Shown one piece after another: positions 3,267-61,012 of a stretch of DNA of 64,000 bases. The stretch is from Alphaproteobacteria bacterium. GTDB lineage: Bacteria > Pseudomonadota > Alphaproteobacteria > UBA7887. The stretch is from the NCBI GenBank assembly GCA_965242575.1, contig OZ251461.1, forward strand, positions 1,505,430-1,569,429, given 5' to 3'. Positions within the stretch are counted from its first letter, which is position 1; each line of letters begins with the position of its first letter. The notes beneath the pieces were generated by a model. That model did not search any database, was not told where the DNA came from, and was given only the letters and a program-made list of their open reading frames with translations. The translations under genes and the position numbers were made by a program.

Positions 3267-3756
3267 CGCGAACGTATTCATAGACGCGAAGAATCGATAC
3301 TATGGGTTCGATTTCTGCTCGGCGTTCTGGGATTGGGCGATCGCAGCCAACCGACGGGGGCTACTGCTCAGCATCGCCGAGGTTGGCGGGGAACTCCGGG
3401 CCGGTAACGACTCGCTCGCGGCATGGGCGGCGGCGCGGGACGCCGGTTTCTTCGCCGAGTCGTTAACCGAACGGAGCGCCTCCGCGGTTAAGGTCAGCAA
3501 CCAGGCGAACGCAATGAATTACAACGTCGTCGCCATAGAGGAATTCATGAAATCCGCCGATTTTCATCTGATTGCCTACGCGGACAAATACAGACACACG
3601 ATCGTCACCCTCGAAGCCGCTTCGCCCACGGGGGCGCGCGCGAAAAGGCGTGTCCTGATACCCGACATGTGCGCCGTGCTCGGTATCGCGTGCGTAACCC
3701 CCTTCGAAATGCTGCGCCGCGAGAACGCGCGTTTCGTGCTCGGCGCCGCGCCGTGA
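3250..3756 (+). CDS. DUF4411-family PIN-like protein (putative nuclease partner of ImmA)
   Basis: N-terminus MAYLIDANVFIDAKNRYYGFDFCSAFWDW is typical of DUF4411. It overlaps the ImmA gene by 17 nt. Confidence 0.75.
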   Translation: MAYLIDANVFIDAKNRYYGFDFCSAFWDWAIAANRRGLLLSIAEVGGELRAGNDSLAAWAAARDAGFFAESLTERSASAVKVSNQANAMNYNVVAIEEFMKSADFHLIAYADKYRHTIVTLEAASPTGARAKRRVLIPDMCAVLGIACVTPFEMLRRENARFVLGAAP

Positions 3757-6700
3757 CCGCCCGCCCGGACTTCATCGACAACCGCGGCGGCAACACGCTG
3801 GCGCGGGCGCTCGACGCGGCGCTCGGCGGCGCGGACGGGGGCGCGGCGGAAGGGGGCGGACCGGACGCGGTGCGCATCGCCACCGCGTTCTTCAACCCCG
3901 CCGGCTTCGCCCGGATCGCCGACCGGCTGGCCGGCGCGCGCGAGGTGCGGTTGCTGCTCGGCGCCGACCCGGCGCTCGCGGCGGCGGACGCGCGGCGGCG
4001 GCTGGACGAAACGCCGGAGGCGTTCGAACGGCGGCGCATGGCGGCGGGCCTGCGCCGCATGGAGGCGGCGCTGCGCCGCGAACGCGACGGCCTGCCGTTC
4101 GACCGGGCGAGCGGCGCCGCGCTGCGCAAGCTGGCCGCGGCCTTGCGCGCCGGCAATATGGAGGCGCGCCGCTACGAAAAGGCGTTCATGCACGCCAAGG
4201 CCTATGTCGTGACAGCGGAGGGCGGGACCTACGGCCGGCCCGAGGGCGTGATCGCCGGGTCGTCCAACCTGACCGACTCGGGGCTGACCCGCAACCTGGA
4301 GCTCAATCTGGGCCGCTACGACCGCCCGGTGGCGGAGCGGGCGCGGCGCTGGTTCGACGAACTCTGGGACGAGGCCGAACCTTGCGACCTCGCCGCGCTG
4401 TTCGAGGATTCGCTGCGGCTTTACACCCCGTGGGAGATTTTCCTTCGCGTGCTCTGGCGGCTCTACGGGGACGAGGCCGCGGCGGACGCGGCGGAGGACG
4501 ACGACCTGCCGCTGACCAGCTTCCAGAAGCACGGCGCGGCGCGGGCGCTGCGGCTGATCCGCGACACGGGCGGCGCGGTGGTCGCCGACGAAGTGGGGCT
4601 CGGCAAGACCTTCATCGCCGGCGAGATCATCCGGCTTTACCGCGAGCGGCGGCAGCGCGCGCTGCTGATCTGCCCGGCGGCGCTGCGCGACACCGTCTGG
4701 CGGCAATTCATCGCCCGGTTCCAGCTGTTCGTAGAATGCCTGTCGTTCGAGGAACTGGCGAACGACCCCCGGCTGGGCGGCGCGGGCGGGGAGAAGCTCG
4801 CGCGGCCGCTCGACGAATACCAGCTCGTCGTGGTGGACGAGGCCCACAACTACCGCAACCCCGGCGCGCCGACCCGCGCGGGGGCGCTGCGGCGGCTCCT
4901 GCGCGGGCCGCGGCGCGATCTTCTTCTTCTCACCGCCACGCCGGTCAACAACTCGCTGTGGGACCTTTACCACCTGCTGCGGTTCTTCCTCCGCCAGGAC
5001 GCGCATTTCGCCGACCGGGGCATACTCTCGATCCGCGGGCTGTTCGAAAGGGCGGCGCGGGAGGATCCCGCAAGCCTCGGTCCCGACACGCTGTTTCCGA
5101 TCGTCGACGCGACGACGGTGAAGCGGACGCGGCAGTTCGTGAAGAAGCATTACGCCGGCGACACGATCCCCGGCCCCGACGGCGCGCCGCTGCCCATCGA
5201 GTTCCCCCGGCCGCAAGCGATCGGCCTGCGTTACAATCTGGACGACCGCCTGCCGGGCTTTTTCGACCGGCTGGAGCGGGCGCTCGACCCCGACGGCGGC
5301 GAGGCCGCCGCCTTCGCGCGCTACACTCCGGAGGTTTGGCGCCGCGGCGGCGCCGACGAGGAGGAGGAGGCGCGCGCCCGGGCGACGGCGGGGCTGCTGC
5401 GCTCCGGCCTCCTCAAGCGCTTCGAGTCGTCGGCTTTCGCCTTCCGCCGGACGGCGGAAAAGATGACGCGCGAGCACGACGCGTTTCTCGCCGCGCTCGA
5501 CGCCGGCCACGTGGTCTCCACCGCGTTCATGAGGGAGCTGTCCGCCGACGACGAGGGGGCGTTCGAGGACGTCCTCGGCGCCACGGAGCACAAGGCGGAT
5601 GCGGCGCTCTACGACGTCGCGGGGCTGCGCGCGGCGGTCGCGCGCGACCGCGGGATTCTCGCCGCGCTCGCGGAGGAGGCCGGGAAGATCGCGCCGGACC
5701 GGGACCCGAAGCTCGAGGCGCTCGCCGGCGCGCTGGCCGGGATCGCGGAGCAGGCCGAACACGAGGCCGCGGACCCGGTCGACGAGGCGCAGAAGCGCAA
5801 GGTCCTGGTGTTCTCGTTCTTCGAGGACACGATAGCGTGGATCCGCGACTATCTCGCCGGGGCGCTGGAGACGCGGCCGGAGCTCGCCGCATATCGCGGC
5901 CGCATGGCGGCGGTCAGCGGTTCGGGCGAGCTCGACGACGTCTCGCGGCAAAAGGCGCTGTGCGGGTTCGCGCCCATGTCGATGGCGGAGCGGACCGAGC
6001 GCGCCGCCGGCGATTACGACATTCTGCTGTCGACGGACGTTCTGGCGGAAGGGGTGAACCTTCAGGATTGCCGGCACATCGTCAATTTCGACATGCCGTG
6101 GAACCCGATGCGGCTGGTGCAGCGGCACGGGCGGATCGACCGCATCGGCGGCCCGCACCGCCGCGTGTTCCTGCGGACGATCTTCCCCGCCGACCGGCTC
6201 GACCGCCTGCTCGATCTCGAACGGCGGATTCTCGACAAGTTGGCGCTGGCGGCGGCGAGCGTCGGCGTGGCGCCGCCGATCCCCGGCGCGGCGCGCGGCG
6301 GGCAGGTGTTCGCCGAAACCCGCGCCGAGATCGAGAAACTGATCGCGGAGGACTCCGCGCTCTTCGAACGCGGCGGCGCGGCCGGCGCCGCGCAGACCGG
6401 CGAGGAATACCGCCAGACGCTGCGCAAGGCGCTCGCCGACGGCGGCGGGCGCATCGCCAACCTGCCGTGGAAGATCGGTTCGGGAATGGTCCGGGGCGCA
6501 CGGCGCGGCGTGTTCTTCTGCGCCGCGGTGGGGCGGGACAGCGACCTGGAGCGCAACTACCTCCGCTTCGTCGACGCCGGCGACGACTGGCGCCCCGCGG
6601 CCGGCGACGGCGCGGTCGAGCGCGAGCGCGGCGCCTGCCTGCGCCTGATCGAATGCGCGGAGGACACTCCGACCCGACTCCCGGACATATTGCGGGATCG

Positions 6701-55262: not shown

Positions 55263-56453
55263 ATGACGACGACGCGCGAAGCGGGGCGGCCCGACCGCCG
55301 CCGCGTCCTGGCGGGGATGGCCGCCGCCTCCGCCGCCGGGCTGCTTCCGGCGCCGGCGCTGGCGCGGGGCGGCGGGCTCCGCATCGGCGCGCTGCTGCCG
55401 CTCACCGGCGGGCTCGACGCCCATGCGGCGCAGATGCGCCTCGGCCTGGAGTCCGCCGTCGACGCGCTCAACGGCGCCGGCGGCGTCCTGGGCCGCCCGG
55501 TCGAGGTCGTTTACGCCGACAGCGCCGGGACTCCCATGGGCCTGGCGGAGACCTGCGACCGCCTCGTTCGCGAGGACGGGGTGGCGGCCGCGGTGGGGCC
55601 GTTCATCTCCGCCGGGCGCAAGACCGCCGCCCGCGCCCTTGCGGCGCACGGCGTCCCGCTGGTCACGGCGGCGAACACCGAGGGGATGTTCCGCGCCGCC
55701 AACTACTTCTCGGTCGGGCCGACCCCGAACCAGGACATTTTCGCGCTGGTCCGCCGCCTCGACGGCGGCGAGGGGCGCTCCTACTTCCTCGTCGGCTCCT
55801 ACACGAGCTGGCAGGTGTCCAGCTTCCGCCAGGCGATCCTCAAGGTCATCTACCGCTTCGAGGGGTCGGTGGAGGGCCAGGCGCTGACCCCGGTGGGCGA
55901 GGAGTCGTTCCAGGCGGTGGCGCGCTGGATCGCCGACACCGGCGCCGACACGGTGGTGTTCTGCGCGCCGCGGCTCCACGGCGCGCATTTCGTCCGCCAG
56001 GCGCGCGCCATCGGCCTGCTCGCCCGCATCCGCCTGGGCTGGGTGGGGTTCAACGAACTCCACGCCGGCGCGCTGCCGCCCGGCGAGGCGGCGCAGGTGT
56101 CCACCGTCTCGCCCTTCGTCGCCTCCGACCGCCGGGGCGGCGTCCCCGACCTGGTCGCGCGCATGGAGCGCATCGGCGGAGCCGCCGTTCCGCCCACCTA
56201 TTACGCCTACACGCACCACAACGCGCTGCTGGCGGTGGCCGCCGCCGCCGAGGCGTCCGGCGAGGCCTCCGCCCCGGCCGTTCTCGCCAGCCTTCCCGGC
56301 CTGGAGTTCGCGGGCGCCACCGGCCCGGTGGCGATCGACGCCGAGAACGGCCATGCGCGTTTCGCCGTCATGGCCGCGCGCGGCCGCGCCGGCGGCCTGG
56401 AGGTGGAGGAGCGCCTGGGCCTCATCGACCCGGAGCCGGGCGGGGCGGGGTGA
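55263..56453 (+). CDS. ABC-transporter periplasmic binding protein, LivK/AmiC (Peripla_BP_6)-like
   Basis: Tat-like signal RRRVLAGMAAASAAGLL, then LRIGALLPLTGGLDAHAAQMRLGLESAVDALNGAGGVLGRPVEVVYADS. Confidence 0.8.
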   Translation: MTTTREAGRPDRRRVLAGMAAASAAGLLPAPALARGGGLRIGALLPLTGGLDAHAAQMRLGLESAVDALNGAGGVLGRPVEVVYADSAGTPMGLAETCDRLVREDGVAAAVGPFISAGRKTAARALAAHGVPLVTAANTEGMFRAANYFSVGPTPNQDIFALVRRLDGGEGRSYFLVGSYTSWQVSSFRQAILKVIYRFEGSVEGQALTPVGEESFQAVARWIADTGADTVVFCAPRLHGAHFVRQARAIGLLARIRLGWVGFNELHAGALPPGEAAQVSTVSPFVASDRRGGVPDLVARMERIGGAAVPPTYYAYTHHNALLAVAAAAEASGEASAPAVLASLPGLEFAGATGPVAIDAENGHARFAVMAARGRAGGLEVEERLGLIDPEPGGAG

Positions 56454-56754
56454 CGGGTATCGGCCGTCGGTTCCGAGGGCCGCGCCCGCGGCTCCGGCGA
56501 TTCTCGTTACCGACGGAGCGCGGCCCGGTCCGCCTTCGCCCGGGACCGCCGGCGTCTCGCCGACGATTTCCGCTTCGGATGTCGCTTGCGCGGGCCGGCG
56601 AGACGCCGGCGGCCCCGGGGATGCGAGCCGCTGTGGAGCGGCGAGGTTCCCCCTGATGGGAATCGCGGCCGTCCGGGGCGGCGCGTTGCCGCCGGCGCCG
56701 GGCCGCGCTATCGTTGCGCGCCGTGGCGTGGACGAATCGTGGAAGGGGGGAGCG

Positions 56755-58338
56755 ATGGCGGGGATGCGCGTTGTGGCGGCGGCGTGCGCCGTTCTGGCGG
56801 CGGCGCCGGCGGCGGGGCAGGGGGACTGCGGCGATCTCGGAGACTGCCTCCGCCCCCTCGCGGATAAGGTGGCGAATCTTCTGAGCCGCGAGGCGCAGGA
56901 TCGCGGCGAGCGGCTGGAGGTGAGTTTCCGCCCCGCGCGGACCGAGCCTTCGGGGGTGGACATTTATTGCCGGGCGTTGTCGCTGGGCCTGCGCAACGCG
57001 CTGCACGAGGGCGTGCAGGAGGAGCGCCGCGACGCCGGCATGAATTTCGAGCTGCTGACCCCCGATTTCATGCGGGTGGAGCCGCCGGAAGTGCTGATGG
57101 TCTGGACTCCGGACCGGACGGGCGGCGGGGTCGAGATACTCGACGTCGAGGTCACCGTCGTGTTGGCGGACCGCGGGGAGCGTGCTCACTCGGGCAAGGT
57201 TCCCATGTCGGCGCTGAGCCGGGCGGAGCGCGGGTGCCTGTTTTCGTTCCGGTCGCAAGCGGCCCGGATCGCGGCCCCGGAGGCGGGGGAACTGTACTCC
57301 GAGCCGAGCTACCGCGCCGACGCCTTTGAGGCGGATTACGAGAAGGGCGACACGCTGCGCATGCTGGGCTGCGCGACGGCCGCCGGCGGCGTCTGGCCGG
57401 TGGTGAGGTGGCGGAACCCGGACACCCGCGAACGCCGCGACCTGTTCGCCCCGGATTTGGTGGACAAGTGCGGGCCGGTCGTCATCGTCGACGACGAAGA
57501 CGACAGGGCGTTCGAGTCGGCGCGTCGCGCGAACACGGTCGCGGCGTTCGACGGGTATTTGTCGTCGTTTCCGTCGGGCCGCCACGTGGCGGAGGCGCAG
57601 CGTTTGCGCGACGAACTGAAGGATCCGCCCCCGCCGCCCGGGACCGTCATCCACGACTGCGATCATTGCCCGGAGATGGTGGTGGTCCCGGCGGGGCGTT
57701 TCGAGATGGGGTCTCCCCCGTCGGAGTCGGGACGCGACGGCGACGAGGGTCCGCAGCATGAGGTGGCGTTCGATTCTCCGTTCGCGGTGGGCGTGTACGA
57801 GGTTACGTTCGACGAGTGGGATGCGTGCGTTTCGAACGGGGGGTGCGGCGGCTACCGCCCGGCCGACCAGGGCTGGGGCCGTGGCGGGCGGCCGGTCATC
57901 AACGTGAGTTGGGACGATGCGCAAGCCTATGCGTCGTGGCTGTCCCGTGAGACGGGGGAGGAGTACCGCCTGTTGAGCGAGGCGGAGTGGGAGTACGTGG
58001 CCCGTGCGGGGACGGTGACGCGCTATTGGTGGGGCGACGGCATCGGCGCGAACCGCGCGAACTGCTCCGGCGATGGTTGCGGGGAGGGCTATGCGAACAC
58101 GGCCCCTGTGGGCAGTTTCGGCGCGAACCCGTTCGGTTTGCACGACGTCCACGGCAACGTTTGGGAATGGGTGGAGGACTGCTGGCACGAGAACTACGCG
58201 CGCGCTCCGTCGAACGGCGATGCGTGGCTCGGCGGTCAGGGCGGCGATTGTTCCCGTCGCGTTCTCCGCGGCGGGTCCTGGTACAACCCTCCCAAGAACC
58301 TCCGCACGGCGCTCCGCGACAGGTACGACACCGGCTAG
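56755..58338 (+). CDS. DGR target protein: secreted protein with C-terminal FGE-sulfatase/C-type-lectin-fold domain carrying the variable region; currently ends at an in-VR TAG
   Basis: Signal peptide MAGMRVVAAACAVLAAAPAAG. FGE domain CPEMVVVPAGRFEMGS...NVSWDDAQAY..WLS...YRLLSEAEWEY..R...HGNVWEWVEDCW...RVLRGGSW. The 3' end is the VR. Confidence 0.9.
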   Translation: MAGMRVVAAACAVLAAAPAAGQGDCGDLGDCLRPLADKVANLLSREAQDRGERLEVSFRPARTEPSGVDIYCRALSLGLRNALHEGVQEERRDAGMNFELLTPDFMRVEPPEVLMVWTPDRTGGGVEILDVEVTVVLADRGERAHSGKVPMSALSRAERGCLFSFRSQAARIAAPEAGELYSEPSYRADAFEADYEKGDTLRMLGCATAAGGVWPVVRWRNPDTRERRDLFAPDLVDKCGPVVIVDDEDDRAFESARRANTVAAFDGYLSSFPSGRHVAEAQRLRDELKDPPPPPGTVIHDCDHCPEMVVVPAGRFEMGSPPSESGRDGDEGPQHEVAFDSPFAVGVYEVTFDEWDACVSNGGCGGYRPADQGWGRGGRPVINVSWDDAQAYASWLSRETGEEYRLLSEAEWEYVARAGTVTRYWWGDGIGANRANCSGDGCGEGYANTAPVGSFGANPFGLHDVHGNVWEWVEDCWHENYARAPSNGDAWLGGQGGDCSRRVLRGGSWYNPPKNLRTALRDRYDTG

Positions 58339-58386
58339 CGGGACCTCGACTTCGGCTTTCGTTTGCTCCGTTCGGTCCGGACGTTC
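58254..58386 (+). repeat. DGR variable region (VR) plus IMH-like 3' segment
   Basis: Colinear with TR 59947-60079 at a constant offset of 1693. There are 16 mismatches and every one is at a TR adenine. The segment 58354-58379 is identical in both copies and contains no adenine. Confidence 0.95.
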
Positions 58387-58427
58387 ACCCCTTAAATCTT
58401 TACCTCCTTACCTCTTCACAGGGGGGT

Positions 58428-58460
58428 CCGGGGGGCTTGCCCCCCGGCCGGAATTTTTTT
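58428..58460 (+). terminator. GC hairpin with 4-nt loop plus T7 run downstream of VR (terminator and/or DGR target-recognition hairpin)
   Basis: ccgggggg-cttg-ccccccgg, then ccggaa and ttttttt. Confidence 0.75.
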
Positions 58461-58481: not shown

Positions 58482-58871
58482 ATGGGTGACGGGCGCGCCG
58501 GGGCCGGCGGGCAGGCGGGGGCGAGGGAGACGGGGCCGGCGCTGGAGGCGCATTACCGCTTCCTGCTCTGGCTCGTCCCGGCCGTGGACGGCTTCCCGCG
58601 CCGCCAGAAGTTCCTGCTCGGCGACCGCATCCAGACCACCGCCCTCGACGTGCTCGAATCGCTCGTCGAGGCGACCTACACCCGCCAGCGCGGCGCGCAT
58701 CTCGGCCGCGCCAACCTGGGGGTGGAAAAATTGCGCCTCCTCTTCCGCCTCGCCCACGACCTGCGCTATCTCGACTCGCGGCGCTACGAGCACGCGGCGC
58801 GCAGCCTCGACGACACCGGACGGCGCATCGGCGCCTGGAGAAAGGCGCACCATGCCCGCGAAGGCGCATGA
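58482..58871 (+). CDS. avd: DGR accessory variability determinant (Avd, four-helix-bundle / S23-IVS family)
   Basis: LEAHYRFLLWLVPAVDGFPRRQKFLLGDRIQTTALDVLESLVEATY...LRLLFRLAHDLRYL. It lies immediately upstream of, and overlaps, the RT gene. Confidence 0.85.
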   Translation: MGDGRAGAGGQAGARETGPALEAHYRFLLWLVPAVDGFPRRQKFLLGDRIQTTALDVLESLVEATYTRQRGAHLGRANLGVEKLRLLFRLAHDLRYLDSRRYEHAARSLDDTGRRIGAWRKAHHAREGA

Positions 58872-60126
58872 CCTGTTCGGCGCCATCGCGTCGTTTCCCG
58901 CCCTGCGCGCCGCCGCCTTGCGCGCCGCGGCGGGCAAGCGCGCGAAGCCGGGGCCGGCGGCCTTCCTCGCCGGCCTCGAGACCGAGGTCCTGCGCCTGGA
59001 GCGCGAACTGGCGAGCGGGCGCTACCGGCCGGGGTGCTACGCGACCATCGAGGTCTTCGACCCGAAGCACCGCGTCGTCTCCGCCGCGCCGTTCCGCGAC
59101 CGCGTCGTCCACCATGCGCTGTGCGCCGTCGTCGAGCCGATCTTCGAGCGCGGATTCATCCACGACAGCTACGCCAACCGCGCGGGCAAGGGGACGCACC
59201 GCGCCATCGCGCGCTACGAACGCTTCCGCGACCGCTTCCGCCATGTCCTGCGGTGCGACGTATGGCGGTATTTTCCCGCCATCGACCACGAGATCCTCAA
59301 GCGCGGCCTGCGCCGGCGCATCGCCTGCCCGCGCACGCTGGCGCTCGCCGACCGCATCGTCGACGGCTCCAACCGGCAGGAGCCGGTCCTGCTGCATTAT
59401 CCGGGCGACGACCTGTTCACGCCGCAGCGCCGCCGGCGCGGGCTGCCGATCGGCAACCTCACCAGCCAGTTCTTTTCCAACCTGTATCTCGACGGCCTCG
59501 ACCACTTCTGCAAGGAGGTCCTGCGCGCGAAGGGCTACCTGCGCTACGTGGACGACTTCGCGCTGTTCGACGACGACCCGGCGCGGCTGGAGGACTGGCG
59601 GCGGCGGATCGGCCGCTTCCTCGAAGGCCGCCGCCTGCGCCTGCATCCGCGCAAGACCGGCATCGCCGAGACCCGCGCGCCGGCGGAATTCCTCGGCTTC
59701 GTGCTGGCGCCCGGCGGGCGGCGGCGCCTGCCGGAGGCGAACGTCCGCCGCTTCCGCGGCCGGCTGCGCGGCCTGCGCGACCGCTGGCGCGCCGGAACCG
59801 CGGACCGCGGCGAGATCGAACGCCGGGTGGGCGCATGGATCGCCCATGCCGAGCATGCCGACACCTGGCGCCTGCGCCAGGCGATCTTCCGGGGCGGGTG
59901 GTTCGACCCGTCGAACCCCCGGCCCGGGGGCCTGCCCGTCCCCCTGCCGTCGCGTTCTCCGCGGCGGGTCCTGGAACAACCAACCCAAGAACCTCCGCAC
60001 GGCGAACCGCAACAGGAACGACACCGGAAAACGGAACAACAACAACGGCTTTCGTTTGCTCCGTTCGGTCCGCACGCTCCGCTGCCGGAACCGCCGGCCT
60101 CAAGGGGCCGGCGGGCGCGCCGGTGA
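58852..60126 (+). CDS. DGR reverse transcriptase (3' end of the ORF reads through the TR)
   Basis: RT motifs SAAPFRDRVVHHAL, SYANRAGKGTH, LRCDVWRYFPAIDH, GLPIGNLTSQFFSNLYL (the DGR-typical xxxSQ) and YLRYVDDFALF. Confidence 0.9.
   Translation: MPAKAHDLFGAIASFPALRAAALRAAAGKRAKPGPAAFLAGLETEVLRLERELASGRYRPGCYATIEVFDPKHRVVSAAPFRDRVVHHALCAVVEPIFERGFIHDSYANRAGKGTHRAIARYERFRDRFRHVLRCDVWRYFPAIDHEILKRGLRRRIACPRTLALADRIVDGSNRQEPVLLHYPGDDLFTPQRRRRGLPIGNLTSQFFSNLYLDGLDHFCKEVLRAKGYLRYVDDFALFDDDPARLEDWRRRIGRFLEGRRLRLHPRKTGIAETRAPAEFLGFVLAPGGRRRLPEANVRRFRGRLRGLRDRWRAGTADRGEIERRVGAWIAHAEHADTWRLRQAIFRGGWFDPSNPRPGGLPVPLPSRSPRRVLEQPTQEPPHGEPQQERHRKTEQQQRLSFAPFGPHAPLPEPPASRGRRARR
59947..60079 (+). repeat. DGR template region (TR) plus IMH*-like 3' segment
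   Basis: It contains 32 adenines, mostly in AAC codons when read in the VR frame (translation VLRGGSWNNQPKNLRTANRNRNDTGKRNNNNGFRLLRSVRT). Confidence 0.95.
60091..60114 (+). other. Perfect 9-bp hairpin just 3' of the TR (candidate DGR RNA structural element)
   Basis: ccgccggcc-tcaagg-ggccggcgg. Confidence 0.5.
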
Positions 60127-60235: not shown

Positions 60236-61012
60236 CTACATCGCGGTGATGCCGCCGTCGACGACGAACTCGGCGCCGGTCATGTATCTCGACTCGTTCG
60301 AGGCGAGATAGACGACGGCCCAGGCGATGTCGTCGGGCGCGCCGAGGCGGCCCAGGGGCACCTGCCGCTCCAGCTTCGCCTTCACGGCGGCGGGGTTCGG
60401 CGCGTGGTCGATCATCGCGCGCACCATCGGCGTGTCGATGAAGGTCGGATGCACCGAATTGCAACGGATGTCGTAGCCCTTGCGGGCGCAATGCAGCGCC
60501 ACCGATTTGGTGAGCAGGCGCACCGCCCCCTTGCTGGCGTTGTAGGCGGCGAGGTTGTGGCCGCCGATGATCCCCGACACCGACGAGAGGTTGACGATCG
60601 AACCGCCCGCGCCGTCCTCGCGCGAGGTCCGCTTGATCGCCTCCACCCCGTATTTGCACCCCAGGAACACGCCGTCGGCGTTCACCGCCATAACCCGCCG
60701 CCAGTCCTCGAGCGAGGTCTCCTCGACCGTCCCCATCGTTCCGACCCCGGCCGAATTGACCACGACGTCGAGGCGCCCGAAGCGCTCCAGCGTCCGGGCG
60801 GTCGCGCGCTTCCACGCCGCCTCGTCGGTCACGTCGTGTTCGACGAAGACGACGCCGCCGCCGATCGCCGCCGCCGCGGCCCGGCCGCCCTCGGCGTTCA
60901 CGTCGGTTATCGCCACCCGCGCGCCTTCCCCGGCCATGCGCTCGGCGGAGCGCCGGCCGATGCCCGAGGCGCCGCCGGTGACCAGCGCGACCTTGCCCTT
61001 CAGCCGATCCAT
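60236..61012 (-). CDS. SDR-family oxidoreductase
   Basis: KVALVTGGASGIGR, NSAG and YNASKGAV (catalytic YxxxK). Confidence 0.9.
   Translation of the reverse strand: MDRLKGKVALVTGGASGIGRRSAERMAGEGARVAITDVNAEGGRAAAAAIGGGVVFVEHDVTDEAAWKRATARTLERFGRLDVVVNSAGVGTMGTVEETSLEDWRRVMAVNADGVFLGCKYGVEAIKRTSREDGAGGSIVNLSSVSGIIGGHNLAAYNASKGAVRLLTKSVALHCARKGYDIRCNSVHPTFIDTPMVRAMIDHAPNPAAVKAKLERQVPLGRLGAPDDIAWAVVYLASNESRYMTGAEFVVDGGITAM

Follow-up and report, generated by a model that had tools for sequence, protein, structure and literature searches.

We believe it likely that a recent round of mutagenic retrohoming wrote a TAG stop at an AAA codon in a diversity-generating retroelement (DGR) lying within the window, the whole 64,000-nucleotide stretch of alphaproteobacterial DNA analysed here. 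In the last such event, the 3' end of the target gene, predicted to encode an exported FGE/C-type-lectin-fold protein, would have received a copy of the template region (TR) with random substitutions at adenines. Where the diversified stretch of the TR carries AAA (Lys) and not the usual AAC, replacement of the first A by T and of the third by G would have produced TAG. Translation would then stop 18 codons early, with loss of the conserved GFR...R C-terminal strand, which in the CLec core is expected to pair with its N-terminal counterpart. The allele looks recent, because the variable region (VR) has accumulated no non-adenine drift over 126 nt and because avd and the reverse transcriptase (RT) gene are intact.

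A repeat finder returned a single strong direct repeat in this region, in which 58254–58386 (the VR, + strand) matches 59947–60079 (the TR, + strand) over 133 nt with 86% identity and an offset of 1693. Base-by-base comparison of the two copies gave 18 mismatches, 16 of them positions at which a TR adenine is replaced by another base in the VR, so that 16 of the 33 TR adenines have changed. All 16 mismatches in the core of the repeat thus fall on TR adenines, the pattern expected of DGR near-repeats; as adenine makes up 25% of the TR, the probability of this arising by chance is ∼0.25^16, or roughly 2e-10. The 126 nt that precede the IMH end contain no non-adenine mismatch. The remaining two differences (58380, G/C; 58384, T/C; VR/TR) sit at the 3' end, directly ahead of the point at which homology stops, where an IMH/IMH* pair would be expected, and the putative IMH-like end of the VR occupies ∼58354–58386. 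The same two VR-specific bases are present in the VRs of two related loci, L081 and L082. Downstream, a GC hairpin (CCGGGGGG-cttg-CCCCCCGG; 58428–58447, + strand), with an 8-bp stem and a 4-nt loop in the DNA fold centroid, starts 32 nt past the TAA that closes the read-through frame and is followed by a T-run. We presume this to be the cruciform/hairpin element of the DGR, and it may double as a terminator; a nearly identical counterpart lies 3' of the L081 VR. With both putative elements present here and kept in L081 and L082, the original prediction that VR, IMH and hairpin are intact is borne out. A search for further TR-like copies, extra VRs or extra targets found none within the window. 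Elsewhere in the family, four loci (L009, L038, L030 and L065) have two to four VR-bearing targets less than 9 kb from one TR, and one of them carries a second, almost unmutated TR-like copy (L030:2244).

The genes that accompany this repeat pair are those of a DGR. An intact ORF of 129 aa (58482–58871, + strand) matches Pfam bAvd (PF22296, E = 7e-16) and supplies avd, the accessory variability determinant. The RT ORF (58852–60126, + strand) matches Pfam RVT_1 and contains both YVDD (59545–59556) and IGNLTSQFFSN (59449–59481), which holds the SQ dipeptide in [I/L/V]GxxxSQ that serves as a criterion for DGR-clade RTs (PMC3521204). RT homology stops near 59950, relatives matching residues 1–354 of 366, and the TR begins where this homology ends, inside the 3' end of the RT ORF, giving the gene order target, avd, RT, TR. 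The RT ORF has no stop before the TR and crosses it (59947–60126) in another frame to a stop at 60126; the RT homologues P0121–P0125 (∼424–428 aa) also run into the TR, in differing frames. Neighbouring genes encode a periplasmic binding protein, an SDR and an alpha/beta hydrolase, and these housekeeping-type flanks indicate that the cassette is chromosomal. By every defining feature that can be tested in sequence, the locus is a complete DGR, and its intact ORFs and the lack of non-adenine drift are indirect signs that it may be active.

We collected 80 loci with related RTs (L001–L080; 70–87% amino-acid identity). They come from MAGs of Alphaproteobacteria, Binatia, Dehalococcoidia, Palauibacter, Acidobacteriota, Latescibacterota, Nitrospira, Gammaproteobacteria, Thermodesulfobacteriota and Candidatus Poriferihabitans; nearly all share the target-avd-RT-TR layout, and their TRs are near-identical. 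The pattern looks like that of one DGR cassette that has spread horizontally across phyla recently. Names such as Candidatus Poriferihabitans lead us to guess that the hosts share a sponge-type habitat.

The target ORF (56353–58338, + strand) is the sole long plus-strand ORF over the VR and stops at TAG 58336–58338. Translation likely starts at 56755 with MAGMRVV, a start common to the homologues P0003, P0004 and P0006 and with GGAG upstream, in which case the gene in its current state spans 56755–58338 (+ strand). In the target frame the TR reads GGA AAA CGG and the VR GGC TAG CGG, placing the stop on an adenine-containing TR codon from which it differs at adenines only: an A-to-T change and an A-to-G change, at the first and third positions of AAA 60029–60031, are all that is needed. 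The codon table therefore gives the same derivation as had been proposed from the letters of the window. Reading through the TAG yields RDLDFGFRLLRSVRTFTP and then TAA at 58393–58395, in agreement with the further claim that this TAA is the natural stop and that 18 codons are lost; the cut-off codons and the putative ancestral stop together occupy 58339–58395 (+ strand). AAA had also been described as the exception among the variable TR codons. It is indeed stop-prone, but it is not alone in this, because AAG at 59987–59989 lies in the same frame and can also become TAG; that codon is unchanged in the VR (58294–58296).

What would be lost with these 18 codons can be judged from the domain to which they belong. 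A signal-peptide-like N-terminus is followed in the target by a domain without a Pfam match and then by a C-terminal FGE-sulfatase/CLec domain, identified by Pfam and PDB matches and carrying the VR at its 3' end as in DGR targets of this type. When the read-through protein was compared with FGE-sulfatase (PF03781), positions 2–255 of the 255-position profile were covered (E = 2e-54), in a match that spans the VR; for the truncated product, P0001, coverage falls to 2–238 of 255. Alignments to PvdO (5hha) and TvpA (2y3c) both extend through the lost tail. Alignment A1 shows residues G516, F517 and R518 to be conserved at 90% or more, the rows without them necessarily including the truncated P0001 itself, and the tail thus holds the conserved GFR...R closing strand, as predicted. 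In the published description of the CLec core (PMC6328139), N- and C-terminal strands run antiparallel to each other. Since the lost segment is a core element, loss of function is a reasonable expectation, and the truncated target is most likely misfolded or inactive. We judged the position of the tail from the Pfam and PDB alignments together with the published CLec topology and not from an AlphaFold2 model of the full-length homologue P0003 (19-sequence alignment), in which pLDDT for the FGE domain is below 50. In the same model the N-terminal domain appears as a helix followed by a beta-rich domain with pLDDT 80–90. This domain (56840–57480, residues ∼30–240 of the window's target), to which Pfam gives no match, is kept in many homologues that have the MAGMRV signal-like start.

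Comparison with relatives places the end of the protein beyond the TAG. We defined a TR/VR pair as clean when at least 80% of its mismatches lie at TR adenines, giving 48 pairs including that of the window. The other 47 VRs all reach their stop 41–46 codons from the start of the repeat, the window alone stopping at codon 27, and all 47 have tails of the form ...GFRxxRTxTP followed directly by the stop, with GFRVARTLTP in many. At the protein level, 89 of the 120 best homologues pass through GFR and end ∼10 residues beyond it; the rest show a deviating motif, a different domain order, a frameshift or an upstream truncation, and the only one of the 120 with a stop inside the VR is the window's own P0001. 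The C-terminus of P0003 reads ...TGIRVSNIGFRLLRSVRTFTP, and its tail, GFRLLRSVRTFTP, is identical to the read-through tail of the window. The L081 VR, which encodes this C-terminus, is also compatible with the window's TR: adenines account for 18 of the 21 mismatches, and the AAA site reads ATT. Homologues that normally end at the TAG position would have spoken against a nonsense allele; among the 47 VRs and the 120 best homologues this was not the case. Judged against these relatives, the TAG of the window is a premature stop.

Some members of the family depart from this simple arrangement. The P0003 target (L081:5446–5578) has no avd or RT nearby and has secA downstream, and a sister cassette at another site in the same genome probably acts on it in trans, as a remote target; if so, the genome from which the window comes may likewise hold additional targets that we have not seen. 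In P0105, a homologous target, the VR is frameshifted and the C-terminus is encoded in the +1 frame, running through the hairpin. P0013 has an Avd-like N-terminus fused to the target gene in one ORF, which suggests rearranged or tandem cassettes.

The original prediction had proposed a survey of homologous TRs for AAA at the site of the stop. In the 79 family repeats surveyed the homologous position is AAC in 65, AAT in 3 and AAA in 4, namely the window, L017, L022 and L048. Among metagenome TRs, three have AAA at the site, and the VR codon is ATT in one of these. The closest cassette, L082 (92% nucleotide identity over FGE, avd, RT and TR), has AAA in its TR and AGA in its VR. Next to P0121, an RT 96% identical to that of the window, the site is AAC and AAA lies two codons further on. 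From these sequences, the site flips between AAA and AAC among close relatives. We also considered an AAC-to-AAA change in the TR that postdates the last homing event, and rejected it: the third base of the VR codon is G, not C, and L082 also has AAA.

Stop-prone codons are common in the family as a whole, with one or more in the TR of 28 of the 48 clean pairs, nearly always AAA and in a few cases AAG. Among all codons, only AAA can be turned by adenine mutagenesis into codons for every one of the 20 amino acids, at the price of 3 stop codons among its 64 outcomes. The 37 VR codons that derive from TR AAA codons in the family encode 16 amino acids, including Glu and Lys, which are out of reach from AAC. 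Two of the 37 are TAG, that of the window and one at a different site in L015, where TR AAC AAC AAA has become VR AGC AAA TAG (VR 3380–3512, TR 5082–5214). The L015 target is truncated 11 codons into the repeat, and its VR, which has several non-adenine mismatches, may be decaying.

How often such stops should arise can be estimated from the substitutions at family adenines, which are kept as A in 43% of cases and become T in 27%, G in 24% and C in 6%. With this spectrum, the chance of a stop per homing event for the window is ∼0.21, as compared with ∼0.11 under uniform substitution; with either value, nonsense alleles should arise often. When whole VRs were scored, none of the other 47 clean pairs had a stop, against ∼3.5 expected (P ∼0.02). 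Per AAA codon, however, TAG occurs at 1/36 when the window is left out, which is not significantly below the expected 4.7–10.7%. With the whole-VR count low and the per-codon count not significantly so, the evidence for purifying selection is weak.

We infer that the assembled TAG allele is a real haplotype. It is nevertheless conceivable that the TAG is an artefact of assembly or of consensus calling, or marks a minority haplotype in a population most of whose cells carry a sense codon, and of the competing explanations, all of which we consider unlikely, this one deserves the most attention. Active DGRs give mixed VRs, and the adenine-only differences make this locus look recently active. 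TAG is called only if T is chosen in column 58336 and, independently, G in column 58338, and the consensus of a mixed VR could join two sense haplotypes, for example TAC and AAG. The collections searched gave no second copy of the gene for comparison: exact-protein look-ups of the target, of Avd and of the neighbouring SDR returned no record, an exact 36-nt pattern from the 3' part of the VR had no match in metagenome contigs, and a protein search found nothing above 68% identity to the target except the window's own product. Against an artefact, the VR outside the TAG stays in frame and derives coherently from the TR through changes at adenines alone, and the TAG does not lie in a homopolymer. 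The AAA-to-TAG change in the independent genome L015, at another TR AAA codon, indicates that real nonsense alleles do occur. Furthermore, a longest contig of 3.39 Mb, listed in the protein index for the window's own product, suggests a long-read assembly, in which paths would usually track real reads.

It is more doubtful that the cassette is dead or dying, with the target a fixed pseudogene and a DGR that no longer homes. Defective elements are certainly common, since more than half of the candidate DGRs in a large survey were discarded for premature stops, truncations or poor TR–VR matches (PMC5758913), and the TAG-bearing VR of L015, with its non-adenine mismatches, fits decay. Decay of the window's cassette is difficult to reconcile with a stretch of 126 nt ahead of the IMH end in which every mismatch lies at an adenine, with ORFs for Avd and RT that are intact and retain the catalytic motifs, and with an IMH distinction and a hairpin that are kept in L081 and L082.

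If, as we favour, the TAG was written by a recent homing event, it should also be open to removal by another. Retrohoming would use the RT, Avd, the TR RNA and, in cis, the IMH and hairpin at the VR 3' end, and would not call on the target protein. With no need for the target protein, and with the IMH and hairpin kept, the TAG could be overwritten in a later homing event, a step that we draw from the BPP-1 model, and the allele would be reversible in principle. A stronger version of this idea, that AAA is kept in the TR as a trade-off and that its stops are a reversible OFF state, the DGR doubling as a phase-variation switch, we regard as highly improbable; were it true, the window would represent a cell line caught in the OFF phase of a surface or periplasmic target.

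TAG is used for termination elsewhere in the window. It closes 6 of the 20 coding-like frames, defined as long frames with high GC3 and low GC2 in a window of 72% GC. One of these, the SDR gene at 60236–61012, ends in TAG with Pfam coverage of 3–236 of 236 that stops two residues before it. The window holds no tRNA gene and therefore encodes no suppressor tRNA. On these grounds TAG is an ordinary stop in this organism. The TAG of the target is followed by C, a context considered to terminate less efficiently in E. coli. That general background apart, it is scarcely credible that the short protein is a normal, functional product or that the TAG is read through or recoded, given that the other clean VRs and the full-length homologues all go on through GFR, that G516, F517 and R518 are conserved, that TAG ends other genes of the window at full Pfam coverage, and that the window encodes no suppressor.

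The prototype of mutagenic retrohoming is the DGR of Bordetella phage BPP-1 (mtd-avd-TR-brt). The window's element shares with it an RT and Avd, TR/VR differences confined to adenines, and a CLec-fold target whose gene carries the VR at its 3' end; in both, IMH and IMH* are distinguished at the 3' end and the VR is followed by a GC hairpin. It differs in being chromosomal, with housekeeping-type neighbours, and in the position of the TR, which in BPP-1 lies between avd and the RT gene whereas here it follows the RT, inside the 3' end of its ORF. Its target, unlike that of BPP-1, has an FGE-subtype domain on a signal-peptide protein, and its TR has AAA and AAG in the diversified stretch.

The target shares its domain family with the FGE-subtype CLec variable proteins of cellular DGRs, TvpA of Treponema denticola (2y3c) and TaqVP of Thermus, which likewise have a C-terminal VR followed by a short conserved strand; the TvpA match (E = 7e-15) aligns to within 4 residues of the TvpA C-terminus. 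In T. denticola TRs, lysine codons are also diversified (PMC4891356). In contrast to TvpA and TaqVP, the window's target has an extra N-terminal domain of ∼210 residues without a Pfam match, and its present allele is without the C-terminal strand. The closest solved structure by sequence is that of PvdO (5hha; E = 8e-57), an FGE-like periplasmic protein, with residues 1–245 of the query aligned to 30–285 of the 286-residue chain and a domain that runs through ...IGFRVARE. PvdO is not diversified by a DGR and serves here only as a ruler for the end of the domain.

That AAY codons avoid stops while AAA and AAG do not is the standard view (PMC6328139; PMC10907252; PMC4891356). Work on a reconstituted BPP-1 DGR has put figures to it: for AAA and AAG, stop frequencies of 6.4% and 7.1% were calculated under uniform misincorporation and ∼1% was observed (PMC12875486, PLoS Genet 2026). 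In that system, as in the window, adenine mutagenesis of AAA or AAG leads to TAA, TAG or TGA; it relied on engineered templates in E. coli and on cDNA or amplicon reads, whereas the window provides an assembled allele of a natural genome. A further difference from BPP-1 is that AAA stops in the window's family, at 1/36 without the window, do not fall clearly below what neutrality predicts.

In conclusion, the locus is a well-supported but ordinary natural case of a side effect that a known mechanism predicts; it represents neither a new kind of system nor a new mechanism. It offers a clean natural counter-example to the emphasis of reviews on AAY codons that never make stops, in a cassette that is otherwise intact. 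What it adds is modest, namely that stop-prone Lys codons are frequent in a cross-phylum RT family and that such codons gave rise to two natural TAG alleles. It nevertheless makes the cost of targeted hypermutation accessible in a small but concrete way, and is a candidate locus at which the rates of purging or overwriting of nonsense alleles could be followed at the level of individual reads.
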